This document shows, piece by piece, positions 378-16,189 of a DNA stretch of 64,000 nt. The stretch's first letter is position 1; each line of letters begins with the position of its first letter. Source of the DNA: a phage; assembly GCA_029945195.1 (NCBI GenBank), contig GCA_029945195.1_4117.1. One strand, given 5' to 3'. The notes beneath the pieces were generated by a model that was not told where the DNA came from, searched no databases, and worked only from the letters and a program-made list of their open reading frames with translations. Position numbers and translations under genes: made by a program.

Positions 378-406
378 TTGACTTATTTTGTCAGTACTGG
401 CATAAT
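378..406 (+). promoter_or_regulatory. promoter TTGACT-17-CATAAT driving short noncoding unit
   Basis: -35 378-383, -10 401-406, CCAGTACTGG palindrome in spacer; conserved motif TAGCCCATAGGGTGCG at 429-444 downstream. Confidence 0.5.
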
Positions 407-521
407 GTATTCATTGGCAGATAAGCCGTAGCCCATAGGGTGCGGAAGTGTATCTATAGAAAAAGTAGTTTAGTACAGTTACAATTGTGCACCCGGTGGG
501 TTAGCTGTTGTCATGGGGTAT

Positions 522-550
522 ATTATACCAGTACTGGATAGTGCTGTCAA
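522..550 (-). promoter_or_regulatory. minus-strand promoter TTGACA-17-TATAAT convergent with 378-406
   Basis: minus-strand -35 at 545-550, -10 at 522-527; minus-strand copy of conserved motif at 488-505. Confidence 0.5.
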
Positions 551-1932: not shown

Positions 1933-1952
1933 GGGGAGAAATGGTTCTCCCT
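1933..1952 (+). promoter_or_regulatory. 5' leader hairpin GGGAGAA-ATGG-TTCTCCC
   Basis: inverted repeat between -10 and SD. Confidence 0.55.
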
Positions 1953-1970
1953 GGTAATGAGGAAAATAAA

Positions 1971-2192
1971 ATGGCTAATATCACTACTCTTTCTCAACTG
2001 GAAGCACTGGTTAAATCTATGCGGGAACATGCCGACAATATCGGCGTAAAAGATCCAGCCGTTTGCTTCTGCGACGAAATGAATGATGATACACTGGTAA
2101 TAGCAGAAGTACAAGATATTTCTAACTATTCATCGCGTTACACTGGCGGCGTAGCAAATAAAGGTGACTTCTGTTTATACCTTACCAAATAA
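1971..2192 (+). CDS. hypothetical protein (73 aa)
   Basis: track ORF 1941-2192 trimmed to ATG 1971 (SD GAGGA 1959-1963); upstream ATG sits in hairpin loop. Confidence 0.55.
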   Translation: MANITTLSQLEALVKSMREHADNIGVKDPAVCFCDEMNDDTLVIAEVQDISNYSSRYTGGVANKGDFCLYLTK

Positions 2193-2197
2193 CAACG

Positions 2198-2227
2198 CGG
2201 GGAGATAATAACTCCCCGTTACTTTTT
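2198..2227. terminator. rho-independent terminator-like hairpin (possibly bidirectional)
   Basis: CGGGGAG/CTCCCCG stem, then TTACTTTTT; also 3' of the minus-strand short unit. Confidence 0.5.
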
Positions 2228-2298
2228 CAGTACTGAATCATTTAATAGACGGATCTATGCACCCTGTGGGTTAGTGACTGTATCGTCTTTATGTAGTA

Positions 2299-2327
2299 AT
2301 TATGCCAGTACTGGATGCAGTTGTCAA
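2299..2327 (-). promoter_or_regulatory. minus-strand promoter TTGACA-17-CATAAT driving short noncoding unit
   Basis: minus -35 at 2322-2327, -10 at 2299-2304; conserved motif copy (minus) at 2258-2274. Confidence 0.5.
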
Positions 2328-3057: not shown

Positions 3058-3074
3058 TATAGTACTGAATCACT

Positions 3075-3103: not shown

Positions 3104-3305
3104 TTTTGTATTATCGTAGTACTGCATACTTTAAAAATAGTTTTAAAATAGTAGTTGACATTACCACAAAAAGGCGTAGAATGTATTACATCAAGACGGG
3201 GAGCACTAAGTAGACCGCCAGTAAGTCGAACGAAAAACTGGACACGTCGATAAAACTTTGATACACTAATAAACGTAAACTAAACTTTAATTGAGGATTT
3301 ATAAA

Positions 3306-3788: not shown

Positions 3789-3809
3789 CAATTAAAGTAC
3801 TGAATCACT

Positions 3810-3837
3810 AGCCCACCTTAAACAGTGGGCTTTTTTG
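3810..3837 (+). terminator. rho-independent terminator
   Basis: same AGCCCACCTTAAACAGTGGGCTTTTTT as 3075-3103. Confidence 0.7.
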
Positions 3838-3855
3838 TGTCTGTAGTATTCCAGT

Positions 3856-3955
3856 CCACCAGCACCGCCTAGAATCGATTCTAACGCATTAAACTGATTA
3901 TCTGATACATCGCCCTAGCTGGTGGCGTTAAGGTCGTTAGAATGCGATTGAGAGC
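3856..3955. repeat. interleaved inverted repeats containing Chi and its complement
   Basis: CCACCAGC 3856-3863 vs GCTGGTGG 3918-3925; ...AATCGATTCTAACGCATT 3874-3890 vs CGTTAGAATGCGATTGAG 3935-3952. Confidence 0.5.
3918..3925 (+). other. Chi site GCTGGTGG
   Basis: exact E. coli Chi octamer, intergenic. Confidence 0.6.
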
Positions 3956-4073
3956 GTTTAAATTATTTTGCAAAAAGTAATAAAAAGTACTTGCACGATT
4001 AAGAGATTAGCGTATAATGTTTTACATCGAGAGGGGGAAACGGTTCTCCTTCCAAATCAAAGGAATCAAAACA

Positions 4074-4301
4074 ATGGCTATTATCATTACTCGCGTATCT
4101 GGTACTACTGGCAACGAACAAGTAGTTGCAGTCATTACGAACAAGGCAGGTGCGGAATTGCAAAATGCAATGAATACCTGGGCCGTTAATGAGTTCGGTC
4201 AGTGGGCAAGTGTAGCATACATTGAAACCTATCAAGTGCCGACCATTAGTTTAACGGATCTTGGTGTGGAACGTATCCTTTGCCTGGATGAATTAAATTA
4301 A
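4074..4301 (+). CDS. hypothetical protein (75 aa)
   Basis: track ORF 4017-4301 trimmed to ATG 4074 (SD AAAGGA); MAII N-terminus shared with 4388 and 7178 genes. Confidence 0.55.
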   Translation: MAIIITRVSGTTGNEQVVAVITNKAGAELQNAMNTWAVNEFGQWASVAYIETYQVPTISLTDLGVERILCLDELN

Positions 4302-4387
4302 AAAAAGTACTTGCAAAGTAAATCGAATAAAGTATAATACATTACATCAAGGGGAGAAATGATTCTCCCCACTACAAGGAAACTAAA

Positions 4388-4600
4388 ATGGCTATCATTA
4401 CTAAAATCAAAGTTAACAAGACTATCGTTAAACTGGCAGAAGTGAAAGAAGGTTATAAAGTATCTTGGTGCGGTATGTATCGGACGTTCGCAGATATAGA
4501 TGATGCGATCAATTATTACAGTGACACGGTTAAAAACTTTGTTCGTGCTGATGTGGTTATGGCAGTGGCAACATATAAAGCAGCGAAAGAAAGTAAGTAA
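4388..4600 (+). CDS. hypothetical protein (70 aa)
   Basis: ORF track; promoter + hairpin 4351-4370 + SD AAGGA. Confidence 0.6.
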   Translation: MAIITKIKVNKTIVKLAEVKEGYKVSWCGMYRTFADIDDAINYYSDTVKNFVRADVVMAVATYKAAKESK

Positions 4601-4691
4601 AAATATTATCACAGTACTATTGACATAGTTTGATAGTACTGGCATAATAGATTTTATCAAGACGACACATATTAATTTAAGGAATACTAAA

Positions 4692-5015
4692 ATGGCTAAA
4701 ACTATCATCAACACCGTTTCCCTGGCTGCAATCCATGCAATCAATGTTGACGGTAAACGTTGGACTGATTCATATGGCAATACTTATCATTCTTGTCATG
4801 TAAGCGTTGAACTGGATAACGGCTTGAATGATCTGGCGGTTGAATCATTTACTTATGGCTATGAGGATGCATATCAACAAACGGCGGTATCACTCTTAAA
4901 GGAATCAGTAGACGGGCTTGATACTGTTGAAACCTCCCTCTATCGTTTGTGCAATGATCTTAATATCCCGTTGCATTGTACTGTACAGAATGTTAAACGC
5001 AAAAAAGATCTTTAA
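4692..5015 (+). CDS. hypothetical protein (107 aa), paralog of 10461-10784
   Basis: shares RWTDSxGNTYHSC..FTYGY..RKKD with 10461 ORF; promoter ATTGACA..CATAAT upstream. Confidence 0.65.
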   Translation: MAKTIINTVSLAAIHAINVDGKRWTDSYGNTYHSCHVSVELDNGLNDLAVESFTYGYEDAYQQTAVSLLKESVDGLDTVETSLYRLCNDLNIPLHCTVQNVKRKKDL

Positions 5016-5095
5016 TTAGCTTTACTTTATGCAGATACTTTGATATAGTGTCTGCATAGGAGAAAGAAATTAAATCAACTTAAGAGGATAGTAAA

Positions 5096-5365
5096 ATGAA
5101 AAATATCAGTACTTTAATCGATGCAGGTACACATGTTCGTCGGTCTATGGTTGCAACCAGTTCTACAAAACAAGTACCAAGCGGTTATCTTGTATTTGTG
5201 CACGATGGAAAACTCCTGGAACGTTCAATCAATTTTGATGTTAAAAACAATTGCCGTTTTATTATCTTTCGCCGTGAACAATATAAAATTGATTTGCCAG
5301 CGAAGCCCATTAGCGGGGCGTACAACGTGCAATCATTGTTTGAGCGTCAACCATACACCTATTGA
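5096..5365 (+). CDS. hypothetical protein (89 aa)
   Basis: ORF track; SD AGAGGA 8 nt upstream. Confidence 0.5.
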   Translation: MKNISTLIDAGTHVRRSMVATSSTKQVPSGYLVFVHDGKLLERSINFDVKNNCRFIIFRREQYKIDLPAKPISGAYNVQSLFERQPYTY

Positions 5366-5416
5366 TCAAATCATCGTCAGTGGTCGATTTAGGCCGCTTA
5401 TATTGGGGATTATACC

Positions 5417-5785
5417 ATGAACGTTAATCAAGTACTGAATGAGATCGAAAGCATCATTAAACCGATGAAGCGTACTGATGCTATGTTAACACCGGAAGAA
5501 TGCCGCCTTTATGAGCGTTACAGCGTCGAACAAGTCCAGGCAATGGCTAGTATCCTTCCGGTTAGTAGTACTGCTAAAGGTGGCCCAGGTTTAACCGTAC
5601 AGGATAAAATCGATCTCCTTAAGCTCAATGGCTATGTAGTTGATGTCGATAAAGAAAAAGTAATGGTATATGATAGTAGTATTGAGCAAGACTATTATAA
5701 CTATTGCATGATTGAAAATGATCCTATTGATTCTATCATTGAAAATATGGTTAACAAAGCATTAAAAGATTTAGATTTAGTTTGA
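5417..5785 (+). CDS. hypothetical protein (122 aa)
   Basis: ORF track. Confidence 0.55.
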   Translation: MNVNQVLNEIESIIKPMKRTDAMLTPEECRLYERYSVEQVQAMASILPVSSTAKGGPGLTVQDKIDLLKLNGYVVDVDKEKVMVYDSSIEQDYYNYCMIENDPIDSIIENMVNKALKDLDLV

Positions 5786-5859
5786 CAGTACTGTAAAAAG
5801 GCGTATAATGTTTTACATAGAGGGGGGAAATGGTTCTCCCCAATAACAGGAGATACAAA

Positions 5860-6012
5860 ATGAAACAATACAACGCTCGGTTTGATGTTACTATCGGTAA
5901 CGGCAAAGGTCAATTCTCTTTCAGTACTCGACGCAGTTATACAGAAAACTTCCTGCGTAATTGTGCACTGACCGCCGCACAAATTAAACATTACTTTCAG
6001 GCTAAAAAATGA
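5860..6012 (+). CDS. hypothetical small protein (50 aa)
   Basis: track ORF 5830-6012 trimmed to ATG 5860 (SD AGGAG); hairpin about 5820-5842 upstream. Confidence 0.5.
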   Translation: MKQYNARFDVTIGNGKGQFSFSTRRSYTENFLRNCALTAAQIKHYFQAKK

Positions 6013-6098
6013 AATCATTAGCTTATTACAGTTCGGCCCTGGTCGGTGCATTGATCGCGGCGTTGTTAGTAACCTATCTATTCTTTATGGTGATTTAA
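6009..6098 (+). CDS. small hydrophobic membrane peptide (29 aa, not in track)
   Basis: hand-translated MKSLAYYSSALVGALIAALLVTYLFFMVI; ATGA overlap with upstream gene. Confidence 0.4.
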   Translation: MKSLAYYSSALVGALIAALLVTYLFFMVI

Positions 6099-6233
6099 AT
6101 GAATCCTAACGGTATAGTTTACAGTACTCCTAAAACTAAAGCAGATAAAGCTAAAGCACGTAAAGCGAAAGTACAGGAATACATCAAGCAAGGCATGACA
6201 CGAAAGGCCGCAGTACTTAAAGCTAAAAAATAA
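6099..6233 (+). CDS. small basic peptide (44 aa, not in track)
   Basis: hand-translated, lysine-rich; start abuts upstream stop. Confidence 0.4.
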   Translation: MNPNGIVYSTPKTKADKAKARKAKVQEYIKQGMTRKAAVLKAKK

Positions 6234-6237
6234 ATGA

Positions 6238-6314
6238 AAAAAGTGGTTGACTTCGGTCAGCCATTTTGCTATTATATATTCATTGAGAGATAGCTCACTA
6301 GCCCACAGGGTGCA
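6238..6314 (+). repeat. composite intergenic repeat, copy A
   Basis: hairpin 6238-6267 with embedded TTGACT 6247-6252 and TATTAT 6270-6275; conserved motif CTAGCCCACAGGGTGCA 6298-6314. Confidence 0.6.
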
Positions 6315-6368
6315 GGAGTGTATCTATTGTATAATGTTTGAGTACTGAAAACTATTTTTAAAAAGTAC

Positions 6369-6396
6369 TTGCAAACTATCTCAATAAGCGTATAAT
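6369..6396 (+). promoter_or_regulatory. sigma70-type promoter (TTGCAA-16-TATAAT)
   Basis: -35 6369-6374, -10 6391-6396; hairpin 6410-6428. Confidence 0.6.
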
Positions 6397-6447
6397 GTTT
6401 TACATCGAAAGGGGAAACGGTTTCCCCTGGTAATAAGGAAACAAATC

Positions 6448-6789
6448 ATGACTATCTCAATTGCTCAATCTAACTTTGAAAATGAAATCATCGCCCAGGC
6501 ACTGCGTTTAAATGATGGTCGGGCCGAAATTAATTACGGTTTCAATTCAGGCGGTTGCGAAAAATATCAGTACTTTACAACGGCTGATGGCTGTGTCCTG
6601 GGCATCAATACAGTTATTGTAAACATTCAGAAAATTAATTTCAATGATCCAGACGATAGCCAGTTTTACATTGTAGGCGTAGACGTGAATTATGAGGATG
6701 ATTCACTAACTGATGATCACACTGGCGAGAAGTTAGAAAGTGCATACGGTGAAGATGATTATCAGTCAGTACCGGAAGATTTTGAATAA
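6448..6789 (+). CDS. hypothetical acidic protein (113 aa)
   Basis: ORF track; SD AAGGA; promoter+hairpin cassette. Confidence 0.6.
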   Translation: MTISIAQSNFENEIIAQALRLNDGRAEINYGFNSGGCEKYQYFTTADGCVLGINTVIVNIQKINFNDPDDSQFYIVGVDVNYEDDSLTDDHTGEKLESAYGEDDYQSVPEDFE

Positions 6790-6882
6790 TATTAAAAAAT
6801 AGTTTGACAATAGATTATAGTACTGTATAATAGTTTACATCAAGGGGAGAATAGTTCTCCCCACTAACAGAGAGAAAACAAA

Positions 6883-7095
6883 ATGGCTAATATCTGCACT
6901 GCTCTGAAAAATGCAAAACAAGTTTTATTTTCTGATCACGATCATTTAAACAAGGATATTACTGGCGTTCGGAATATCAAAGATGTAAAAAGTGTTATGG
7001 GTATCTATTGCAATATGAAACGTGTTGGAACGTTCGGCGACAAAGTACTATACCAGGCAGGGGATTACAATTTTACACTGACGATCATTAACTAA
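6883..7095 (+). CDS. hypothetical protein (70 aa)
   Basis: ORF track; hairpin 6844-6862 upstream. Confidence 0.6.
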   Translation: MANICTALKNAKQVLFSDHDHLNKDITGVRNIKDVKSVMGIYCNMKRVGTFGDKVLYQAGDYNFTLTIIN

Positions 7096-7177
7096 AAATA
7101 TTATCACAGTACTATTGACATAGTTTGATAGTACTGACATAATAACTTTTATCAACTACACTACTAAGGAATTAAAA

Positions 7178-7357
7178 ATGGCTATCATCGCAAAAACTGA
7201 AATCATCGGCCTGGATTCTATCATCATGACGTTTGAAGATCAAAAAGGTATGTATGTAGTTTCATATGGTGATTATGTTCGGGAGTATGAAACGGTAGAC
7301 GAAGCCTTTGAAAGTTACATTCGCCAGGTGAATAAAGCATACGACGACTACCGCTAA
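7178..7357 (+). CDS. hypothetical small protein (59 aa, not in track)
   Basis: hand-translated MAIIAKTEIIG...; promoter ATTGACA..CATAAT and SD AAGGA upstream. Confidence 0.5.
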   Translation: MAIIAKTEIIGLDSIIMTFEDQKGMYVVSYGDYVREYETVDEAFESYIRQVNKAYDDYR

Positions 7358-7456
7358 AATATATTACCAGTACTATTAAAGATATTGACAACGTTTGATA
7401 GTACTGTATAATAAGTTTTATAAACAGTAGTTAACTTAACCTAAGAGAGAAACAAA

Positions 7457-7600
7457 ATGATCGCACTGGATTCATTCATCGACGCAGTACTGGCAAAAAC
7501 TGGCGAGGATCTTACCGCAGAACAATACGCGATGATCGAACAATGTCAACAGGACGGTAAATCGGTGAAAGATACTGTTAAGATTATCCGCAAGATGTAA
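7457..7600 (+). CDS. hypothetical small protein (47 aa, not in track)
   Basis: hand-translated; promoter TTGACA..TATAAT and SD AGAGAGA upstream. Confidence 0.45.
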   Translation: MIALDSFIDAVLAKTGEDLTAEQYAMIEQCQQDGKSVKDTVKIIRKM

Positions 7601-7606
7601 GATTAT

Positions 7607-7634
7607 AGCCCACTGGTTAACGCTGGTGGGCTTT
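7607..7634 (+). terminator. terminator-like hairpin containing Chi
   Basis: AGCCCAC/GTGGGCT stem 7607-7613/7626-7632 with Chi 7622-7629 spanning loop and 3' arm; weak T tract. Confidence 0.45.
7622..7629 (+). other. Chi site GCTGGTGG
   Basis: exact octamer. Confidence 0.6.
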
Positions 7635-7699
7635 AATTCATTACCCTATACAATGCCAGTACTAAACCGTTTATCTCGTTAGAATGCGTTACAGGACGT

Positions 7700-7903
7700 T
7701 TGACAATGATTAGCATGAAATCAGTACAAAAACAAATAGAAACATTATCAAAAATTAAACGTAAACAGTACTCCTTAGAATATACAATCAATGGTAACTA
7801 TCATCTAATGAAAGAAAATAATTTTATAGTCATTGATGAATCATTGCAAATCATTAGTATAGTACTGAAAGCATTAATCAATGACAGAAAAAAATTAAAA
7901 TAA
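7700..7903 (+). CDS. hypothetical protein (67 aa)
   Basis: ORF track; AT-rich, no strong SD. Confidence 0.35.
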   Translation: MTMISMKSVQKQIETLSKIKRKQYSLEYTINGNYHLMKENNFIVIDESLQIISIVLKALINDRKKLK

Positions 7904-7907
7904 TCTA

Positions 7908-7977
7908 TTGACAAATTATGCCAGTACTGGCATAATACTTACATCAAGACGAGAACGTCACTAACCCATAGGGTGCA
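7908..7977 (+). promoter_or_regulatory. promoter TTGACA-17-CATAAT plus conserved motif CTAACCCATAGGGTGCA
   Basis: -35 7908-7913, -10 7931-7936, motif 7961-7977. Confidence 0.5.
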
Positions 7978-8234
7978 CAAATGTAACTGTATAATATTGA
8001 TCAAAAAATGATCTGATCAATACTTGTTCAATTTGCGTAAAGTAGTATAATTCTATGCAGTTGGTTAGACGAAAGGTTATGATTAGTAGTGGAAGTGTAT
8101 AAAAATTTTCATGGTGTGGTGTTCCGCACATATGGGGATGAATATGTCGTGTCGTATGGATTGGAAAAAGTAAAAACAAGTAATATACTTGTCGCGTTAC
8201 AGTACTATAGTAATTTTATAATGAGGTTAAAATA

Positions 8235-8492
8235 ATGGCTGTAGGATTCACGAAAGATGGGGCCGAGCAAGACGAGATTAACGCAGTGATTCAGGCCGCT
8301 GTTAACCACGCTAGAACGCAAATTAACGCACAAATAGAATCACTGATACATTGCCTCGACTGCGGCGATAAAATCCCTGAGAATCGCCGCCAGGCAGTTA
8401 AGGGGTGTAAGTACTGCATAACTTGCCAGGAGGATCATGATAGTATTTTTAAACGTCAACCGCGTAATTGTTGGCATAGATCTATGAGATAA
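8235..8492 (+). CDS. TraR/DksA-family C4 zinc-finger protein (85 aa)
   Basis: CLDCGDKIPENRRQAVKGCKYCITCQ matches the CxxC-x17-CxxC TraR/DksA C-terminal zinc finger. Confidence 0.6.
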   Translation: MAVGFTKDGAEQDEINAVIQAAVNHARTQINAQIESLIHCLDCGDKIPENRRQAVKGCKYCITCQEDHDSIFKRQPRNCWHRSMR

Positions 8493-8573
8493 AAAGTATT
8501 GACAGTACTGAAAGATAGTGTATACTGTATTACATCAAGGGGAAACGTCTTCCCCTACTAAGAGGAAATGAAA

Positions 8574-8762
8574 ATGGAAAACTTATCAAGTATTTTAGTA
8601 CAAGATGATTTCGGTAATCCTGGAAGTGCTATCATCGTTCGGGGCAATAAGGCAACGTTTGTTATTGCTGGTGGGCCTGTACAGCGTAGCATTAAAAACA
8701 ATGCAGTTACAATCAATAATGTTCGCTATCGCTTAGATAAAGAATTGATTCATAAACTTTAA
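8574..8762 (+). CDS. hypothetical protein (62 aa)
   Basis: track ORF 8568-8762 trimmed to ATG 8574 (SD AGAGGA 8561-8566); hairpin 8538-8556. Confidence 0.5.
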   Translation: MENLSSILVQDDFGNPGSAIIVRGNKATFVIAGGPVQRSIKNNAVTINNVRYRLDKELIHKL

Positions 8763-8848
8763 AAAAAGTATTTGACAAAGCATCGTAGTACTGTATAATA
8801 GTTTACATGAAGGGGAGAAATGATTCTCCCCACTAAGAGGAAAGAAAC

Positions 8849-9061
8849 ATGCAAGGTCAACTAATCGTTCGTAAATGGTCTGATACTAACGAAAAACCGT
8901 GGGATGTTCAATATATCGGACCAGACGGTGTTTCACGTTATCAACCTGGCGTAACGCATAGTACTGAGCAATATGCCGCCGCTCACCGTGAACGCCTGTT
9001 AGAATCTATGAAACAGGGATTCTGTGAAAAATTCATTCAAGATCATTGGCTGAAAGATTAA
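8849..9061 (+). CDS. hypothetical protein (70 aa)
   Basis: ORF track; promoter + hairpin 8812-8831. Confidence 0.6.
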   Translation: MQGQLIVRKWSDTNEKPWDVQYIGPDGVSRYQPGVTHSTEQYAAAHRERLLESMKQGFCEKFIQDHWLKD

Positions 9062-9080
9062 TATATAAGGAGTACAGCTT

Positions 9081-9173
9081 ATGCAAATGAATCCGATGAT
9101 TGTTGTGTTAGCTGTACTTATGATCATTCATGCCATCGTAGAAGTACTAACACAATCAGGAGTAATACAATGA
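9081..9173 (+). CDS. small hydrophobic membrane peptide (30 aa, not in track)
   Basis: hand-translated MQMNPMIVVLAVLMIIHAIVEVLTQSGVIQ; SD AAGGAG upstream. Confidence 0.45.
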   Translation: MQMNPMIVVLAVLMIIHAIVEVLTQSGVIQ

Positions 9174-9340
9174 TCCAGGTGGAATTATCAGTACTGAAAG
9201 ATCTGTTTTATCGGTTAGGCACTACTGGCGAATACCCTAAAGGGGATACTGCTAAACTATACATTGCATTGGATGTATGGCAACGTAATGAACTGGCTAA
9301 CGCCTGGCGTAAAGGTAAATCAGAGGGGATTGCAGCATGA
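9170..9340 (+). CDS. hypothetical small protein (56 aa, not in track)
   Basis: hand-translated; ATGA overlap with neighbours. Confidence 0.45.
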   Translation: MIQVELSVLKDLFYRLGTTGEYPKGDTAKLYIALDVWQRNELANAWRKGKSEGIAA

Positions 9341-9486
9341 AAGAATTTTTATTCGAAGTAGTGTTCCAGGGCGTAGGAAGTAACCAACTGATACGATCAA
9401 GTGGTTACAATGTTAACCAGGCATGGAATAACATTAAACAAATGTACCCGAACGCTATCACCTATCGCAACCCAAAACAAGTTTAA
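9337..9486 (+). CDS. hypothetical small protein (49 aa, not in track)
   Basis: hand-translated; ATGA overlap. Confidence 0.45.
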   Translation: MKEFLFEVVFQGVGSNQLIRSSGYNVNQAWNNIKQMYPNAITYRNPKQV

Positions 9487-9497
9487 AAAGAATTGAA

Positions 9498-9567
9498 AAA
9501 GGGATTGACTCCGGTCAGTCCCTTTGCTATTATATATTCATTGAAACAATCTAGCCCACAGGGTGCA
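9498..9567 (+). repeat. composite intergenic repeat, copy B
   Basis: hairpin 9498-9525 with embedded TTGACT 9505-9510 and TATTAT 9528-9533; motif CTAGCCCACAGGGTGCA 9551-9567. Confidence 0.6.
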
Positions 9568-9585
9568 TAAATGTATCTATTGTTT

Positions 9586-9593
9586 GCTGGTGG
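9586..9593 (+). other. Chi site GCTGGTGG
   Basis: exact octamer, intergenic. Confidence 0.6.
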
Positions 9594-9633
9594 CTAGTAC
9601 TATCAAGTACTGAAAACTATTTTTAAAAAGTAC

Positions 9634-9661
9634 TTGCATTGTACTTAGAATCAAGTATAAT
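9634..9661 (+). promoter_or_regulatory. sigma70-type promoter (TTGCAT-16-TATAAT)
   Basis: -35 9634-9639, -10 9656-9661. Confidence 0.55.
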
Positions 9662-9668
9662 GTTTTAC

Positions 9669-9741
9669 ATCAGGACGGGGAACGAAATAAGTAACCCCGT
9701 TAAGTAGTCCAGGAGTAAGACATACGAAAACCTCCCCTGAT
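9669..9741 (+). ncRNA. conserved ~75-nt structured leader element, copy 2
   Basis: about 90% identical to 631-705 with the same flanking promoters. Confidence 0.4.
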
Positions 9742-9748
9742 AAAATAG

Positions 9749-9777
9749 TTTGACAATAGAAATTAAACGAGTATAAT
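9749..9777 (+). promoter_or_regulatory. sigma70-type promoter (TTGACA-17-TATAAT)
   Basis: -35 9749-9754, -10 9772-9777. Confidence 0.6.
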
Positions 9778-9807
9778 ACTTACATCAACCACAAAGAGGA
9801 ATACAAA

Positions 9808-10008
9808 ATGAAACATTTTACTTTCGGTGTAGTAGGCTTTACAGTATCCAGCGGCGTTTATAAATCAGAACGCGGTGCTAAAAATGCAGCAAGTCGGGCG
9901 TATGGTTCACAGCGTGACTTACAGGTCGGTTATATTAGTAACATTAATAACATGTTTATTCCTGTTTCACAGCGTAAAGCGGGTAACATGAAATGGGAAA
10001 CAATTTGA
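9808..10008 (+). CDS. hypothetical protein (66 aa)
   Basis: ORF track; SD AGAGGA. Confidence 0.6.
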   Translation: MKHFTFGVVGFTVSSGVYKSERGAKNAASRAYGSQRDLQVGYISNINNMFIPVSQRKAGNMKWETI

Positions 10009-10097
10009 TAAAATAGTTTGACAATAGTTTTTAGTACTGTATAATATTTTACATCAAGTGGGGAATAGTTCCCCACCTAACAAAGAGAGAAATTAAA

Positions 10098-10373
10098 ATG
10101 CGGATTCTACTGACAGCTAACGAAATCGAGCAAGTACTGACTACTAACCTGGAACAATGGAAACGTGATGCAGATATCCAGGCGGTACAATGGCTTAACG
10201 ATAAGTTAACGCCGGATGACTTAAGCAAGATTGTAGATCCTCAATTCTACGAAGATATTCACGACACCGCGTTAAGCGTCGAGGATGTACTTGATAAGCA
10301 CTATATTGATACTGATTTACAGGTTTACGGTCGTAAAAACTTTATCACTATTCACGACATTTACAATACTTAA
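10098..10373 (+). CDS. hypothetical acidic protein (91 aa)
   Basis: ORF track; hairpin 10059-10077. Confidence 0.6.
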   Translation: MRILLTANEIEQVLTTNLEQWKRDADIQAVQWLNDKLTPDDLSKIVDPQFYEDIHDTALSVEDVLDKHYIDTDLQVYGRKNFITIHDIYNT

Positions 10374-10460
10374 GTATTGACAAAGTATCTTAGTACTGTA
10401 TAATAGTTTACATCAAGGCAGGGGAATGGTTCCCCTCCTAACTAAAAGAGAGAAATTAAA

Positions 10461-10784
10461 ATGGCTATGATCCTTACCCAGAAAGTAGAAATGAAAATTG
10501 TAACTTCCTTTGACATTAAAGTTAATCGGTGGACTGATAGCCACGGCAATACTTACCACTCATGCTACGTGTCTGCATTGATTGGTGACCGCTGGGAAGA
10601 CCTGGGACACGAAACATTTACTTACGGTTACGGCACACAAGGCGAGTACACTGGTTTGGAAATCATTAAGGAAACTGTAATAGGTTTCAACCCGAAAGAG
10701 AAAGTACTACACAGAATTGAGAAAGAGATCAACAAAGAAATTACAGTTCGATACTACGATGTAAAACGTAAGAAAGACATGTAA
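10461..10784 (+). CDS. hypothetical protein (107 aa), paralog of 4692-5015
   Basis: shared RWTDSHGNTYHSC / FTYGY / KRKKD motifs; hairpin 10420-10436. Confidence 0.65.
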   Translation: MAMILTQKVEMKIVTSFDIKVNRWTDSHGNTYHSCYVSALIGDRWEDLGHETFTYGYGTQGEYTGLEIIKETVIGFNPKEKVLHRIEKEINKEITVRYYDVKRKKDM

Positions 10785-10883
10785 TAGAATCCATTTAAAG
10801 TACTATTTGACATTGCCCAGATAGTACTTTATAATAGACTCTAACTTGTAGTACTAATTAACTTAACTAATAGGATGTACACC

Positions 10884-11279
10884 ATGATTACTAAATTCTT
10901 CGCTACCCGTGAACAAGCTCGCATCGTTGCCCGTGAAGAAGGTGAAACATTTAAAGACATGGGCAAAGATGCACCGAAAGGACAACGCTGGGCGGTACAG
11001 TTCAAAGAGATCTCTGATATTGTGAATTCACCTGAGCCTGTACTTACAGCAGCAGAACTAAAGCAAGCTCAAGAACTGGCTGAAGTACTGAACGCTCAAG
11101 ATGACTTTTTGAAAGGTTCTGATATTGAAGTTACAGTTAACGCAAATGCATGGACTCACGCGGATCACCTGGCAAACCTTAAGCGTCCAAGTGAACTGAT
11201 TCGTAACCAGAAAGAGATCCGTCATGACCGTAAAGGAAACCGTGTAACAGTATACAGTAAACGCCGCCAGGTTATCTAA
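10884..11279 (+). CDS. hypothetical protein (131 aa)
   Basis: track ORF 10875-11279; second ATG 10884 better spaced from AGGA. Confidence 0.55.
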   Translation: MITKFFATREQARIVAREEGETFKDMGKDAPKGQRWAVQFKEISDIVNSPEPVLTAAELKQAQELAEVLNAQDDFLKGSDIEVTVNANAWTHADHLANLKRPSELIRNQKEIRHDRKGNRVTVYSKRRQVI

Positions 11280-11302
11280 TAACTTTGCAGTACTAACAAC
11301 AC

Positions 11303-11327
11303 GGCGGGAACTATTCCCGCCTTTTTT
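11303..11327 (+). terminator. rho-independent terminator
   Basis: GGCGGGAA-CTA-TTCCCGCC then TTTTTT. Confidence 0.7.
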
Positions 11328-11341
11328 ATAGGATAAACAAA

Positions 11342-11596
11342 ATGATTAAGGTTCAACTATCAAACGATAATGTATTACGGGTACACTATAAAGCCCCACA
11401 GAGAATCATCACAAAGGCCGTACAGCTTGCTAATGAGTTTATTAATGGTAGTCTATTGCCTAGGAAGTTAAGCAACGGGAAACTACGTGTAATCGACGTA
11501 GACACTAACAATAGAATAGTGATCGAGAGTACTGGAAAAATTAATCTATATGAACACCAACAATACAATAAAAAAATAAAACTAATATCACGTTGA
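11342..11596 (+). CDS. hypothetical protein (84 aa)
   Basis: ORF track; SD AGGA. Confidence 0.55.
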   Translation: MIKVQLSNDNVLRVHYKAPQRIITKAVQLANEFINGSLLPRKLSNGKLRVIDVDTNNRIVIESTGKINLYEHQQYNKKIKLISR

Positions 11597-11621
11597 CAGT
11601 ACTCAAATGTTTTAGTATTAT
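11593..11621 (+). promoter_or_regulatory. promoter TTGACA-17-TATTAT
   Basis: TTGACAGTACTCAAATGTTTTAGTA block duplicated at 11874-11902. Confidence 0.5.
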
Positions 11622-11654
11622 GTATCTATACCAACACAGAGAGAGAGAAACAAA

Positions 11655-11873
11655 ATGAAATTATCTAAAATCGAAAAGAAAACTATTGATGAAGCAGTGA
11701 AGCACGGTTATACCTTTCGTAATGATTCACACTTCACTAGTTTTCAACAGGGAAACCGTACCATCAAAAAACTCATTGATAAAGGTTTACTCACTAAGGT
11801 TGATAACGGGAACGGTGTAGAATATCAACCGACAGAAGACGCATTATCACTAAAGAAATATTCTATTATCTAA
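11655..11873 (+). CDS. hypothetical protein (72 aa)
   Basis: ORF track. Confidence 0.55.
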   Translation: MKLSKIEKKTIDEAVKHGYTFRNDSHFTSFQQGNRTIKKLIDKGLLTKVDNGNGVEYQPTEDALSLKKYSII

Positions 11874-11902
11874 TTGACAGTACTCAAATGTTTTAGTACT
11901 AT
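11874..11902 (+). promoter_or_regulatory. promoter TTGACA-17-TACTAT (duplicate of 11593-11621)
   Basis: near-identical 30-nt block. Confidence 0.5.
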
Positions 11903-11930
11903 GTACGCATACCAACACGGGGAAAACAAA

Positions 11931-12173
11931 ATGATTACTTTAGAAAAACGTATCAAAGAGACTACAACGCTGGTGGAACTGTTAACCGTTCTTAAATGCC
12001 GGGTAACTCCATTCAGTACACCGGACTTTATCAACATGGTGGACGTTAACGGTCGATATCGTATTGCGGTCGAACAAGGTACGGCAAAAGTATTCAGTAC
12101 TAAAAATACGCGTGAAGTATTCCACGCAGTTCAAGTAAAAAAAGTAGTTGCCATTGATAGTAAAGTACTGTAA
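11931..12173 (+). CDS. hypothetical protein (80 aa)
   Basis: track ORF 11874-12173 trimmed to ATG 11931 (SD GGGGAAAA). Confidence 0.5.
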   Translation: MITLEKRIKETTTLVELLTVLKCRVTPFSTPDFINMVDVNGRYRIAVEQGTAKVFSTKNTREVFHAVQVKKVVAIDSKVL

Positions 12174-12204
12174 TATAGTTTCATTAACTCAAGGAGTCAA
12201 CACA

Positions 12205-12789
12205 ATGCGTAACTATACTAAATTCATCCGTTCACTTCATGCAATGGAAACCAACAAAGAGATCCTTTCAGCTTGTCGGTTAGCTGGACTGGAGATCGTC
12301 GGTGCGGGTTCTTCCCGTATTGTATTCGCTTTAAATGATCGGTTAGTGATTAAGGTCGCGAATTGTGATGCGGGTGTAGAACAAAATGAAACTGAATGTA
12401 AGGTATGGAATTTTTTAGATTATGACCGTCCGCACCTTAAACAGTACTTTGCTAAAGTGCATATGCATTTATGCGATCCTGATAATCTGTTTATTGTTAT
12501 GGATCGTTTGAGTACTGCAAGCAAAGGCAGTGTAAAGCATGTAAACGCGTGCAATGAGTTAAAGTACAATATTAAACGTAATACGGTAGAACGCCATCAC
12601 CATTTCGCTGATGCTCTCAATCACGTTGATGATACATTATCCACACTAACGATAAGAGATATCAGAAAACAGAATATCGGCCAGGATCGCAACGGCTTGA
12701 TTAAAGTACTTGATTACGGTTTAACCCGCAATATCTGGAATCAGTACTATAAAAAACGTGATGTTAACGCGATAACTATAACACGATAA
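12205..12789 (+). CDS. minimal eukaryotic-like protein kinase fold (194 aa)
   Basis: track ORF trimmed to ATG 12205 (SD AAGGAG); Gly loop VGAGSSRIVF, LVIKV lysine, hinge FIVMDRL, catalytic loop IRDIRKQNIG, DYG; C-lobe subdomains VIII-XI absent. Confidence 0.55.
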   Translation: MRNYTKFIRSLHAMETNKEILSACRLAGLEIVGAGSSRIVFALNDRLVIKVANCDAGVEQNETECKVWNFLDYDRPHLKQYFAKVHMHLCDPDNLFIVMDRLSTASKGSVKHVNACNELKYNIKRNTVERHHHFADALNHVDDTLSTLTIRDIRKQNIGQDRNGLIKVLDYGLTRNIWNQYYKKRDVNAITITR

Positions 12790-12800
12790 AAAAGATTAAA

Positions 12801-12875
12801 AAAGGGATTGACTCCAGTCAGTCCCTTTGCTATTATATATTCATTGAGAGATAACTCACTGACCCATAGGGTGCG
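12801..12875 (+). repeat. composite intergenic repeat, copy C
   Basis: hairpin 12801-12828 with embedded TTGACT 12808-12813 and TATTAT 12831-12836; motif CTGACCCATAGGGTGCG 12859-12875. Confidence 0.6.
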
Positions 12876-12930
12876 GAAGTGTATCTATTATATAAGTATT
12901 CAGTACTGAAAACTATTTTATAAAAAGTAC

Positions 12931-12958
12931 TTGCAAACTATCTCAATGAGCGTATAAT
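12931..12958 (+). promoter_or_regulatory. sigma70-type promoter (TTGCAA-16-TATAAT)
   Basis: -35 12931-12936, -10 12953-12958. Confidence 0.6.
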
Positions 12959-13013
12959 GTTTTATATCGAGAGGGGGAAATGGTTCTCCCTGGTACTAAA
13001 AGGAATCAAGACG

Positions 13014-13235
13014 ATGACTACTATGACATGCGTTCACGCTTCAAATCTTCTGAATGATGCAGCATTTAAAGCAGGTGAAGAATATCAATGCTATCGGGAT
13101 GAAAATAAAAAAGTTTTCGTCGTTGATGCTAACGGTTTCCATATTGAATTACAATCCGGCTTCACTGGTTTAAATGGTAAATCAGTATGGGGCGTTAATG
13201 ATGATAATGGTCTTTATCACTTTATCCGTAATTAA
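13014..13235 (+). CDS. hypothetical protein (73 aa)
   Basis: track ORF 12957-13235 trimmed to ATG 13014 (SD AAAGGA). Confidence 0.55.
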   Translation: MTTMTCVHASNLLNDAAFKAGEEYQCYRDENKKVFVVDANGFHIELQSGFTGLNGKSVWGVNDDNGLYHFIRN

Positions 13236-13318
13236 GTATTGACAAAGTATATCAGTACTGTATAATAGTTTACATCAAGGGGAGAATAGTTCTCCCCACA
13301 ATAAAAGGAAACAAAATT

Positions 13319-13591
13319 ATGTCCAGCTACTCCGCTACTATGATTATTAAAGATATGAACGGTAATCCTACTTCTGCTGGTGGATCATTTGGTAACATTA
13401 ATTTAGATGGGCGGTTATCAATTGAATCAGCCATCAATGCCGCGAAAGAAGTTTTTAAGAATGAATGTACTGTAAGCAAACTGGATTATATGGGCTTCGC
13501 TATCGAGAAAACTAATCGTTTTGTGGACTACAAAAAACCACTGATGATCGATACTAACCTGAAAGCTAACGAAGTGGAATACTTATTATGA
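13319..13591 (+). CDS. hypothetical protein (90 aa)
   Basis: ORF track; hairpin 13279-13297; contains in-frame Chi 13376-13383. Confidence 0.6.
   Translation: MSSYSATMIIKDMNGNPTSAGGSFGNINLDGRLSIESAINAAKEVFKNECTVSKLDYMGFAIEKTNRFVDYKKPLMIDTNLKANEVEYLL
13376..13383 (+). other. Chi site GCTGGTGG (inside CDS)
   Basis: exact octamer. Confidence 0.55.
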
Positions 13592-13779
13592 CAGTTGAAG
13601 AAGTTAAAAAAGTACTGGCAGTACTACGCTATCATAATCATTGCAAGGTGAAGAATGATCCTGATTATGTTGATTCATCCCTGGAGGAAGACACCTTAAA
13701 CGCGATAAGCTATATGCAAACATTAGCAAAGCGTATGACCGAAAAGAATAGGCCGGACTATATCGGAAATAAAATTTAA
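13588..13779 (+). CDS. hypothetical protein (63 aa)
   Basis: ORF track; ATGA overlap with upstream gene. Confidence 0.5.
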   Translation: MTVEEVKKVLAVLRYHNHCKVKNDPDYVDSSLEEDTLNAISYMQTLAKRMTEKNRPDYIGNKI

Positions 13780-13867
13780 AAAGTACTTGCATTGTAGTTA
13801 GATTAACGTATAATGTTTTATATCGAGAGGGGGGAAATGGTTTCCCCTCAAGTCCAGGAGATACACC

Positions 13868-14131
13868 ATGAACACTATCGAAATCACTATCAATGCACAC
13901 GTATACGACAACGTAGTACTGCAAACTACTATGACCGCTAATGATACCAGTACTTTGCGGAATATCGTTATTAGTTCAGTATGTGCCGCTATCGGTGATG
14001 TTGCCCTGGAAAATGCAAAACACGTCAACGATGCCTTTACGATGTGCAAACGTGATAACTCAAAACATATCATCTGCGAAGGTTACGGCGGTGTAGAATA
14101 CAATGTTTATATGAAAAAAGTACTTGCATAA
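13868..14131 (+). CDS. hypothetical protein (87 aa)
   Basis: ORF track; SD AGGAG; hairpin about 13825-13847. Confidence 0.6.
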   Translation: MNTIEITINAHVYDNVVLQTTMTANDTSTLRNIVISSVCAAIGDVALENAKHVNDAFTMCKRDNSKHIICEGYGGVEYNVYMKKVLA

Positions 14132-14199
14132 TAACTAAAACAAAGTATAATGTTTTGCATAGGGGGAGATATCCTCCCCCACTAATAAGGAGTACTAAA

Positions 14200-14424
14200 A
14201 TGGCTAACTTTGATGAACTGATGCGGGAAGTAGCTACCCTGGCAGAAGAGAAGAAATCATTTGATTCTATCTATAACACCGCTTACAGTGATTCAGTACT
14301 GGCATGTACTCAGGATCAAAAAGATGAACTGATCGCCACCTATCATGAAGCATGGAAGTATTACCGCCAATGGGAGAAAGAAGAAAGCGAGTCTACCATC
14401 AACGGCATCAATAATCTAATCTAA
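14200..14424 (+). CDS. hypothetical protein (74 aa)
   Basis: track ORF 14155-14424 trimmed to ATG 14200 (SD AAGGAG). Confidence 0.55.
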   Translation: MANFDELMREVATLAEEKKSFDSIYNTAYSDSVLACTQDQKDELIATYHEAWKYYRQWEKEESESTINGINNLI

Positions 14425-14499
14425 AGTTTTATTTCAGTACTATTGACATAGCTTGATAGTACTGATGTAATAACTTTACTAACTACAAGGGGAAACATA

Positions 14500-14757
14500 A
14501 TGGAACAGTTCACACAATATCGGGTAAATCCTCAAGCTATGGCCTACGTAGAAGACCATAAAACATTACCAGTACAGACACCAATCAAAGGCCGTATCTA
14601 TCGTGCTATGCAGTGGAATAACGCCTATAATGGCTATAAAGCGGTATCCGCTGCAATGTACTTAGGGGATGGCGAATGGTTTGATCCAAATAATCCTGGT
14701 GCACTCGATAGTACTGAACAAATGACATGGGCCGACTATATCGAAGATATCTCATAA
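14500..14757 (+). CDS. hypothetical protein (85 aa)
   Basis: ORF track. Confidence 0.55.
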   Translation: MEQFTQYRVNPQAMAYVEDHKTLPVQTPIKGRIYRAMQWNNAYNGYKAVSAAMYLGDGEWFDPNNPGALDSTEQMTWADYIEDIS

Positions 14758-14845
14758 AAACTATTTGACAGTACTACAAGATAATGTATAATGTTTTACA
14801 TAGAGCGGGGGAATAGTTCTCCCGCACCTTTAGGAGTAAAACATT

Positions 14846-15046
14846 ATGTCAATCGCTAACGAATTGGTTGCAGTACTGAATGAAGCAAAAGCCAACTGCA
14901 TCGATGTACAGATCAAAGAGCTTGGCAATGGCTTGATCGGCTGTACTTGTTCCGTGCAAACGGCTACCGATTATCGGGAAGTGGAATCACTCGAATCACT
15001 GGTACGGTATATTAAAATCCTGGTAGAAGATTGGAGAATCATCTAA
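14846..15046 (+). CDS. hypothetical protein (66 aa)
   Basis: ORF track; SD AGGAG. Confidence 0.55.
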   Translation: MSIANELVAVLNEAKANCIDVQIKELGNGLIGCTCSVQTATDYREVESLESLVRYIKILVEDWRII

Positions 15047-15061
15047 CAAAAAAGAATAAAA

Positions 15062-15132
15062 AAAAGGGATTGACTCCGGTCAGTCCCTTTGCTATTATAT
15101 ACGCATAGACAAAAATTAGCCCACAGGGTGCA
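15062..15132 (+). repeat. composite intergenic repeat, copy D
   Basis: hairpin with embedded TTGACT 15070-15075 and TATTAT 15093-15098; motif TAGCCCACAGGGTGCA 15117-15132. Confidence 0.6.
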
Positions 15133-15175
15133 GAGAAGTATCTATAAGATAGTTAATAACGGTGAGTAACTATCT

Positions 15176-15183
15176 GCTGGTGG
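15176..15183 (+). other. Chi site GCTGGTGG
   Basis: exact octamer, intergenic. Confidence 0.6.
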
Positions 15184-15303
15184 ATGTAATGCCAGTACTC
15201 AAAACTATTTCAAAAAAAGTATTGACAAAGTATATCAGTACTGCAATAATGTATCTCGTAGGGCGGCAATGGTGCGACGGCCCACAAAGTTAGGAGATTC
15301 AAA

Positions 15304-15630
15304 ATGAGTACTTCAATCGCTATCGTTAAAGCTTTCATCCGTACCAATTTCGACCGCATTACTGTTGATGGTAATGATCGGGAAGTAGAATACTCTTTCA
15401 TCGTTGCACAAACCGCAAACGGTGCACGCTATATCTTAAACGATAGTGAAGCTAACCACTACTTCTATAATAAGGGATTACATTATATCCCTAGCGAAGT
15501 AGTCTACACTAAGATGAATAAGCTAGTAGACAAGATTAACGCAAAGGGTACTATAGATTTACAGTACTGGACCGAAACCGATCCAGAATACGGATCACAT
15601 CGTTACCTGAATCCAGGAATTAAAATGTAA
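15304..15630 (+). CDS. hypothetical protein (108 aa)
   Basis: ORF track; SD AGGAG. Confidence 0.6.
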   Translation: MSTSIAIVKAFIRTNFDRITVDGNDREVEYSFIVAQTANGARYILNDSEANHYFYNKGLHYIPSEVVYTKMNKLVDKINAKGTIDLQYWTETDPEYGSHRYLNPGIKM

Positions 15631-15719
15631 AAAGTACTTGCATTGTACTTAGAATCAAGTATAATGTTTTACATAGAGAGGGGGAAATGGTTCTCCCTCC
15701 TAAATTAAGGAGTTTTATC

Positions 15720-16121: not shown

Positions 16122-16189
16122 GCATTACACATCACCAAACATCATAGGCCGCTCTCTAGCGGCCTTAACTATATCAGGAGGGCATACAT

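Follow-up and report, generated by a model that had tools for sequence, protein, structure and literature searches.

An intergenic terminator-promoter repeat in a jumbo phage very probably transcribes a conserved RNA element

Background

We analyzed 64,000 nucleotides (nt) of phage DNA (GenBank assembly GCA_029945195.1, contig GCA_029945195.1_4117.1), hereafter the window, in which an intergenic repeat at 9498 combines a terminator-like hairpin, a promoter and a short conserved motif. The locus raises the question of what such a promoter transcribes, and whether the motif behind it acts as DNA or as RNA. A preliminary description, made from the letters of the window alone, had suggested a family of short promoter-proximal RNAs or a conserved protein-binding or processing site. 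It missed the likeness of the repeat to the promoter early stem-loop elements (PeSLs) of T4-like phages, its conservation across a group of jumbo phages and its apparent confinement to a terminal repeat. We conclude that the repeat is very probably a terminator-promoter cassette whose promoter transcribes a conserved RNA element under selection.

The window evidently derives from an Asteriusvirus-like jumbo coliphage of the 121Q/PBECO4/Rak2 group: a 10-kb slice around the repeat is 89–97% identical to the Asteriusvirus jumbo coliphages JP4, CRJP21, BF17, phAPEC6, 121Q, PBECO4 and G17. Jumbo phages of the Rak2 group (121Q, PBECO4, RaK2, K64-1, GAP32, CBB, BF and relatives) are under development for therapy, and their early program is almost uncharacterized. 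Most genes of their ~20-kb terminal repeat are annotated as hypothetical.

A repeated module with a conserved motif

The 28-nt hairpin AAAGGGATTGAC-TCCG-GTCAGTCCCTTT is exact at 9498 and 15063, has one mismatch at 12801, and retains its 12 pairs at 6240 through GTGG/CCAT changes on both arms. The module hairpins begin 7–17 nt past the stop codon of the upstream open reading frame (ORF) and have a T-rich tail, and homologous hairpins are annotated as terminators (ARNOLD) in the record of phage G17. All four carry TTGACT in the 5' arm, followed after 17 nt by TATTAT with TG before it. The module is predicted to be an intrinsic-terminator hairpin in which the -35 box of a sigma-70 promoter is embedded, a promoter that is near consensus and has an extended -10 box.

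The 16-mer TAGCCCACAGGGTGCA occurs seven times in the window at up to three mismatches, compared with 0.09 expected, and the relaxed core CCCAYNGGGTGC occurs eight times, compared with 0.29 expected. The eight core copies start at 432+, 489-, 2259-, 6302+, 7965+, 9555+, 12863+ and 15120+. Within 15 kb they are distributed over the four hairpin modules and four other promoter units. A motif stretch usable as a probe target is UAGCCCACAGGGUGC. Blocks resembling CAGTACTGAAAACTATTT follow the modules at 6340, 9605, 12901 and 15193.

Much of the preliminary description was borne out by this survey: the recurrence of the module at four sites (6240, 9498, 12801 and 15063), the terminator with an embedded promoter, the compensatory changes in the copy at 6240, the conserved 16-nt motif, the Chi octamer in two copies (9586 and 15176) and the CAGTACTGAAAACTATTT-like block. 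The motif had also been placed behind stand-alone promoters, and promoters at 378–406 and 7908–7936 do precede the copies at 432+ and 7965+. Two of its proposals have to be revised. It had the motif transcribed from either strand; the copies at 489–503 and 2259–2273 each have their own minus-strand promoter, so that every copy would be transcribed in the sense direction only. It had also counted Chi as a part of the element, whereas Chi (GCTGGTGG; 9 copies in the window, 0.43 expected) is enriched across the whole region and not specifically in the module.

Linkage to promoters across jumbo phages

We gathered the copies of related phages by a collection scan and the relaxed pattern, which gave 72 distinct regex-defined copies. 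All 72 lie on the transcribed strand, 17–26 nt past a -10 box. The spacings fall into two classes, a short class of 17–19 nt (24 of 72 copies) and a long class of 22–26 nt (48 of 72). We then built a covariance model from 14 copies. The model finds 8 copies in the window and 108 in all DNA scanned, the relatives of the window included. The carrier phages have hosts in seven genera (Escherichia, Klebsiella, Cronobacter, Pectobacterium, Serratia, Yersinia and Erwinia); Yersinia phage fHe-Yen9-03 accounts for at least 11 copies and Erwinia phage pEa_SNUABM_19 for at least 13. By BLAST, 4–10 promoter-motif places per genome are found in jumbo phages of Escherichia, Klebsiella, Salmonella, Cronobacter, Pectobacterium, Serratia, Yersinia and Erwinia.

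Among 100 distinct model hits, 94 have a promoter that ends 3–10 nt upstream and agrees with the consensus at 9 or more of 12 positions, compared with 3.8% of random positions. The promoter has the TG extension in 66 of the 100. An upstream hairpin of at least 6 base pairs (bp), the terminator-embedded type, is present in 62, leaving 38% without one. Orientation relative to transcription is identical in about 108 of 108 copies. The converse fails: at 4620, 7115 and 15222, genes are driven by same-type promoters that have no motif behind them. A weak model match at 38450–38496 of the window (E 0.24) was dismissed, as the motif is absent there.

The transcribed element

The element appears to consist of an optional 5' hairpin (P1), a conserved hairpin (P2, RCCC-loop-GGGU) and a tail conserved in sequence. 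Its conserved length is 35–55 nt, and it begins with two unpaired nucleotides or an A-rich leader. In the long class, the extra 5–8 nt form P1 immediately 5' of the motif. All 48 long-class copies have a P1 stem of 3–5 bp, with a mean of 3.79 bp compared with 2.09 ± 0.15 bp for shuffled sequences. More than 15 distinct stems occur, among them UGGC/GCCG, UGAG/CUCA, GACG/CGUC, CAAA/UUUG, GCCA/UGGC, GGAG/CUCC, GGAA/UUCC, AGCA/UGCU, ACCG/CGGU and ACCAC/GUGGU. All four P1 pairs vary on both sides in a fixed-geometry alignment (A2), in which 100% of the cells are paired, and the P1 helix is 91.5% paired in a 101-row model alignment (A3). In mutual information the four pairs outrank every other column pair (0.84–1.57; next-best pair 0.57). 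In most long-class copies P1 starts 2 nt from the inferred 5' end. The short-class copies lack P1 and have instead a 12-nt unpaired A-rich 5' end.

P2 is a 4-bp hairpin within the motif, with UA and GC as its flanks. It is closed by A-U in 57 copies and by G·U in 38, and its innermost C-G is replaced by U-A in 3 copies and by U·G in 5. The loop has 3 or 4 nt of variable sequence (ACA, AUA, ACC, UAUA, UAGA, CAGA and others). Motif columns are 97–100% invariant, compared with 50–60% for the flanks. The 14-nt tail, RGARRU-SYR-UCUAU, is kept in sequence and not in structure. We infer that selection acts at the RNA level; a symmetric DNA site is hard to reconcile with the alternation of G·U and A-U, the variable spacing and the fixed orientation.

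The preliminary description had raised structural covariation, and this was found: P1 covaries strongly, and P2 combines G·U/A-U alternation with compensatory changes. It had further enclosed the motif in a small AGATA..TATCT stem. These letters are present in three window copies, yet AGAUA sits in the P1 loop, and pairing of the 5' end with the tail, or of AGAUA with UAUCU, is no better within a copy than with swapped partners (duplex energy -4.32 compared with -4.30 ± 0.17). A known RNA family, which it had named as an explanation that would overturn its own, did not emerge from Rfam 15. Its short promoter-proximal RNAs stand as a promoter-proximal RNA element (72 of 72 regex-defined copies and 94 of 100 model hits). 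Short RNAs as such are plausible where a copy faces a convergent partner or a terminator and not a gene, which is the case for roughly 40%.

Two other candidate features were rejected. A downstream hairpin (P3, registers 59–63/68–72 and 59–61/68–70) was no better than shuffles or slid controls. A mini-ORF (NUG-UAU-CUA-stop, like the lambda bar minigenes) has a start codon in only 44 of 100 copies, and its frames are not conserved. By eye, we noted partial matches to pause signals, both sigma-dependent and elemental, and a partial likeness between the tail and the T7 class II signal ATCTGTT; neither is claimed here.

Searches for known families or host counterparts

The whole window had no match in Rfam 15 at the gathering threshold, and positions 1–16500, searched with E up to 10, had nothing overlapping the element. 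BLAST against both strands of 5,426 E. coli genomes returned no match to the element. A pattern scan of 100,044 bacterial and archaeal species, each represented by one genome, gave one chance hit only, inside a coding region. The E. coli rrn operon (rRNA and tRNA) has neither resemblance nor complementarity to the motif at up to three mismatches, and the rest of the 64-kb window contains no complementary site. Our literature search found no paper that describes the motif. A link to the non-coding RNAs that RNA-seq has defined in PA5oct, a related jumbo phage of Pseudomonas, was dropped: the covariance model finds no copy in the first 30 kb of that genome, which holds both of the abundant ones. 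The RNA element thus appears to be a new conserved motif restricted to one jumbo-phage lineage, and the cassette half of the repeat to be of a known kind.

What lies downstream of the element

We classified what follows 100 distinct copies. Another copy is faced convergently by 29, with the spacing fixed at 47, 58 or 65 nt. An intrinsic terminator lies ahead of at least 10 (37–42 nt downstream in seven, 57–69 nt in three); it is usually bidirectional and belongs to a converging gene. For 44, a second promoter or a gene comes next. The remaining 17 were left unclassified by our crude rules, and several of these (e.g., window 2290–2235) likewise lead to a terminator. In relatives, a few copies are immediately followed by a gene (e.g., L034 12602); in three relatives the gene directly behind the element is of a “virion structural protein” family that has no informative domain.

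The genes behind the four window modules have their own promoters (TTGCAA/TTGACA-N16-TATAAT), a hairpin in the 5' untranslated region (UTR) and a Shine-Dalgarno sequence, so the embedded promoter is not needed simply for expressing them. Untranslated leaders of 110–250 nt follow the modules. The next feature starts ~40–50 nt after the motif, which makes a compact unit of ~70 nt from the predicted start site. For roughly 40% of the copies no gene can be the target, and the short RNA itself appears to be the product. The downstream pattern fits an RNA product or tag better than an antiterminator. The layout of a small-RNA gene (own promoter, no ORF, terminator within ~100 nt) is recognizable at window 2327–2197 on the minus strand and for at least 10 copies in relatives. 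The window unit is predicted to yield a gene-less RNA of ~100 nt; the convergent gene uses the same terminator (2219–2197), whose U tract is poor in the minus direction.

Downstream of the gene-proximal promoters of the region (TTGCAA/TTGACA-N16-TATAAT without TG) come a stereotyped hairpin in the 5' UTR (GGGGAAnnGTTCCCC type, its stems varying), AAGGAG and ATG. Examples are at 60–110, 1670–1700, 1925–1955, 2395–2425 and 2715–2745, and there are many others. Promoter-plus-leader units of the early region thus fall into two distinct classes.

In related phages a Fur-box-like palindrome (GCGAATGATTATCATTTCGC, core AATGATTATCATT) lies exactly midway between convergent units (L037 3117–3133, L068 8085–8101, L071 1283–1299, L004 1031–1047 and L034 6095–6104). 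The convergent pair of the window (413–514) has no such palindrome. Host Fur might act between convergent units as a roadblock or an iron-dependent switch.

Confinement to the terminal repeat

All eight window copies of the element lie within 413–15155. A homologous module of phage vB_Ec-M-J, at 14,008–14,098, is within its annotated direct terminal repeat (1–21,525), and 11 of 11 element copies of that phage are inside this 21.5-kb repeat. For phage Sharanji, a terminal repeat of 20.7 kb has been determined (PMC11895373). In the window, a promoter-rich array of small plus-strand genes stops near 16.5 kb, and tightly overlapping genes lie beyond. On the basis of the vB_Ec-M-J annotation, the Sharanji repeat and the end of the array, we read the window from 1 to ~16.5 kb as the right-hand part of the direct terminal repeat, an array of small early genes, and the element as apparently confined to this repeat. 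The array consists of ORFs of 40–200 amino acids, annotated in relatives as hypothetical proteins. The early region of the Rak2 group is expected to be transcribed by the host polymerase from RpoD-type promoters (PMC5259590).

Near the left end of the repeat, three records have a convergent pair of promoter-element units (L093, which is vB_Ec-M-J, 1069–1340; L089 285–412; L090 976–1101). The first 0.3–1.7 kb of these records are without an annotated gene, and vB_Ec-M-J adds a third unit. These left-end units would be among the earliest DNA to enter the cell.

Proposed function

We suggest the following sequence of events. The terminator hairpin would end the upstream small gene and also supply the -35 box of the embedded promoter, which host RNA polymerase would fire once the DNA enters the cell. 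The motif would form the core of the RNA element (45–55 nt) at the 5' end of the transcript, and the element would be a recognition tag for a trans-acting protein, either of the host or an injected or early phage protein. Convergent and terminator-facing units would produce abundant immediate-early short RNAs, and other copies would form the leader of some early mRNAs. We infer the start site, the existence and length of the RNA, and its protein partner. Such a 5' tag or decoy on immediate-early transcripts, recognized by a trans-acting factor, has in our judgment nearly an even chance of being correct. We prefer it because of the gene-independent copies, the use of the strongest promoter type, the invariant stem with conserved single-stranded flanks and the weak intrinsic folding.

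Several observations count against a protein-recognized tag or decoy. We found no transcriptome in the literature for this phage group and identified no candidate binding protein. Single copies fold weakly, with minimum-free-energy z-scores of -1.9 to +0.4, although a weak fold with an invariant sequence may be more typical of an element recognized by protein than of one that folds stably by itself. A palindromic DNA site (ACCC-N3-GGGT) would likewise give a conserved stem around a variable loop, strict closeness to the 5' end would be just as expected of a cis element working on the transcribing polymerase, and recombination can keep PeSL-type repeats alike and so inflate conservation within one genome.

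The highest-ranked alternative, which we nevertheless consider unlikely, is a cis-acting nascent RNA like put of phage HK022, which would fold on the host RNA polymerase and make it resist pausing or termination (by Rho on the leaders, or at the cassette terminators) with no protein factor. The present element is likewise promoter-proximal and always sense, consists of small hairpins, lies in an early region that the host polymerase transcribes and precedes long untranslated leaders; put acts as sense RNA with stem-loops, and putL is situated shortly past an early promoter and needs no proteins (PMC9378689). However, put has ~70 nt and two obligatory stem-loops, whereas the present element is about half that size, its P1 is dispensable (absent in a third of copies) and its P2 has 4 bp. 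HK022 has two put copies per genome, upstream of read-through operons; here there are 8–11 copies per terminal repeat, many with no downstream gene, and roughly 40% face a convergent partner or a gene-less terminator, where read-through would be useless or harmful. The window genes past the modules have their own promoters, and no similarity to put in sequence or family was found. Ranked below it, and also unlikely, is a determinant of 5' stability or processing, in which a structured end would block decay by RppH and RNase E or the tail would be a cleavage site that releases a short RNA. The position of P1 at 2 nt from the 5' end in most long-class copies would suit this, as would the GGGGAAnnGTTCCCC hairpin with which mRNAs from the gene-type promoters also start. 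Protection requires a hairpin and not an invariant sequence, however, the short-class copies begin with unpaired nucleotides, the 5' end and tail pair without co-evolution, and the candidate tail hairpins are unsupported.

A DNA operator stands lower again in our ranking. Here ACCC-N3-GGGT plus the tail would be a duplex site at +12 to +45, bound by a phage or host protein that acts as a roadblock and shuts off the strongest early promoters, and P1 would be unrelated. The core is indeed an inverted repeat whose palindrome is preserved by the same compensatory changes, its location just past the promoter suits a roadblock, and the Fur-box-like palindrome of the relatives shows that such cassettes can contain DNA-binding sites. 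Yet 38% of copies have G where symmetry demands A, a G that pairs with U in RNA; the half-sites are 3 or 4 nt apart; a symmetric operator would not require the fixed orientation; and the insertion of a covarying P1 between promoter and motif is tolerated. It is improbable that the repeat is a recombination linker only, i.e., a PeSL-type patch of homology made uniform by recombination or gene conversion with a functionless transcribed motif. PeSLs are documented recombination points (PMC2839356, PMC4122927), and homology between relatives and the window breaks directly before two hairpins (6240 and 9498). Such a linker leaves unexplained the compensatory changes of P2, the pairing of all of the more than 15 different P1 stems, and a 15-mer that is identical across phages of seven host genera despite diverged flanks, promoters and hairpins. 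Least probable of all, in our view, is a base-pairing small RNA with the conserved 15–30 nt as a seed against a host or phage transcript. Some units do resemble small-RNA genes, with a strong promoter, an RNA of ~95–100 nt and a terminator, and the part near the 5' end is the most conserved; but the searches of the window, the rrn operon and the E. coli genomes described above gave no complementary site or match on either strand, and the core is locked in a hairpin whose pairing is under selection.

Returning to the tag or decoy, a more far-reaching proposal is possible, although we do not regard it as probable: an undescribed class of phage RNA, a 5'-terminal tag made from the strongest terminal-repeat promoters in ~20 gene-independent copies per genome in the first minutes of infection, lineage-wide, which would either reprogram the host polymerase protein-free (a mini-put) or titrate an RNA-binding or immunity protein shared by many enterobacteria. 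If true, this may reveal factor-independent control of host polymerase or a new RNA decoy. A near-invariant element over seven host genera offers a concrete molecule for probing host take-over.

Comparison with known systems

PeSLs of T4-like phages combine strong sigma-70 promoters with terminator stem-loops, are repeated in hyperplastic regions and serve as recombination points (Arbiol et al. 2010, PMC2839356; Comeau et al. 2014, PMC4122927). The present cassettes resemble them as small repeated intergenic units amid small variable early genes and as terminator stem-loops with a strong sigma-70-type promoter (TTGACA-N17-TATAAT) and A/T-rich flanks, and they may also share a tie to homology breakpoints between related phages. 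The PeSL nt-1 stem consensus, A3-4G3-loop-C3T3-4, is close to AAAGGG...CCCTTT of the present hairpin. Four of the eight window units and 62 of the 100 family copies have a stem-loop, which is a predicted terminator. The homology blocks of many relatives start or stop at query positions 221–227 and 3486, which are window positions 6220–6226 and 9485, just upstream of the hairpins; this is consistent with cassettes that act as recombination linkers. Unlike in PeSLs, the -35 box is inside the stem and not downstream of it, and the promoter is not directly before a Shine-Dalgarno sequence and start codon, since a structured RNA element and usually a second promoter intervene. Again unlike PeSLs, 38% of element copies have no upstream hairpin, many face no gene, and the carriers are Rak2-group jumbo phages with cassettes in the terminal repeat only. 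The two PeSL papers describe no conserved transcribed motif. The present cassettes would extend the PeSL idea to terminator-promoter cassettes beyond the classical T4-like phages that are able to carry an RNA payload. As compact, very strong and self-insulated units, the promoter and element together may be useful parts in synthetic biology.

We regard HK022 put and lambda boxB as functional analogies only, since their defining features are not found here. In lambda, a small hairpin with a G/C stem in the early leader RNA (nut) is recognized by a protein (N). The boxB stem is GCCCU/AGGGC, compared with GCCC/GGGU in the present element. The identity of boxB resides in its GNRA-like pentaloop, whereas the loop here is short and variable and the stem invariant. 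Unlike lambda nut, the element has no conserved boxA-like block, no N-like gene was identified, and the copy number and convergent layout do not fit. A comparison can also be drawn with RNA anti-CRISPRs (solitary repeat units) and pseudo-ToxI antitoxin mimics, which are likewise short promoter-driven multi-copy phage RNAs with a conserved hairpin that would titrate a host protein. The likeness is in logic only: they copy the host repeat almost exactly, whereas the present element has no host counterpart in the 5,426 E. coli genomes and 100,044 species searched.

Feature coordinates

Table 1. Predicted features of the repeat at 9498 and of the other element-bearing units in the window
Feature	Position	Strand	Details
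Terminator-like hairpin, 12-pair stem, TCCG loop	9498..9525	+	12 nt past stop of ORF 9337..9486
-35 box TTGACT in hairpin 5' arm	9505-9510	+	
Embedded sigma-70 promoter	9505..9533	+	TTGACT, 17-nt spacer, TG 9525-9526, TATTAT 9528-9533
Inferred start site of the 9498 module promoter	A9540	+	
Conserved 5' RNA element, short class (no P1)	9540..9590	+	Covariance model 38.8 bits, E 2.9e-9; A-rich leader AUUGAAACAAUC; motif 9552-9566; P2 9554-9557 paired with 9561-9564; UCUAU 9576-9580
Chi octamer GCTGGTGG	9586..9593	+	In intergenic module, outside RNA element
AGTACT-flanked A/T-rich stretch, then gene-type promoter	9596..9661	+	TTGCAT 9634-9639, 16-nt spacer, TATAAT 9656-9661
Module A	6240..6337	+	Hairpin 6240-6267, compensatory GTGG/CCAT; promoter 6247-6275
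Module A element, long class	6282-6337	+	P1 UGAG/CUCA; motif 6299-6313; 66.6 bits
Module C	12801..12898	+	Hairpin 12801-12828; promoter 12808-12836
Module C element, long class	12843-12898	+	Motif TGACCCATAGGGTGC 12860-12874; 70.1 bits
Module D	15063..15183	+	Hairpin 15063-15090; promoter 15070-15098; Chi 15176-15183
Module D element, short class	15105-15155	+	Motif 15117-15131; 38.8 bits
Stand-alone promoter and long-class element	378..467	+	Promoter TTGACT-N17-CATAAT 378-406; element 413-467; 57.8 bits; plus-strand half of convergent pair
Promoter and short-class element	465..550	-	Promoter TTGACA-N17-TATAAT 550-522; element 514-465; 26.1 bits; minus-strand half of convergent pair
Promoter and element	2197..2327	-	Promoter TTGACA-N17-CATAAT 2327-2299; element 2290-2235; 41.4 bits
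Bidirectional terminator of plus-strand gene 1941..2192	2219-2197	-	Beyond the 2290-2235 element
Stand-alone promoter and long-class element	7908..8000	+	Promoter TTGACA-N17-CATAAT 7908-7936; element 7946-8000, P1 GACG/CGUC; 40.4 bits

Other features of the early region

A search of the window for tRNA and tmRNA genes found none. Small genes of the early region are common to unrelated coliphages of ~140–150 kb, at 82–93% identity. Three records labeled “Campylobacter phage” (MG065656, MG065650 and MG065662; 140–150 kb) match small genes at window 6870–7090 and 13586–13752. Among the matches these records group with rV5/phAPEC8-like coliphages, and their host labels look doubtful.

The Chi octamers of the window are at 3856-, 3918, 7622, 8667, 9586, 11969, 13376, 15176 and 55897-. 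Eight of them are in the terminal-repeat part, seven of these on the plus strand, which is the orientation for RecBCD entering from the right-hand end of the repeat. The cluster may protect the genome end. In the related phages L008, L034, L066, L067 and L068, Chi or its complement lies within the spacers of promoters of the same family.

The palindrome AGTACT occurs 237 times in the window, and CAGTACTG 53 times compared with 0.75 expected, inside and between genes (e.g., 392, 529, 566, 2228, 7922 and 32317–63646). In the early region it flanks -35 boxes (AAAAGTACTTGCAA) or occupies promoter spacers (CCAGTACTGGCATAAT). It could be a genome-wide site of protein binding or modification.

An ORF-less repeat is present at 628–705 and 9668–9745 in copies that are 92% identical, with a gene-type promoter before and another promoter after. 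It is predicted to have a closed fold (AUCAGG...CCUGAU, -19.2 kcal/mol, z -2.3) and is a candidate non-coding RNA of ~78 nt.

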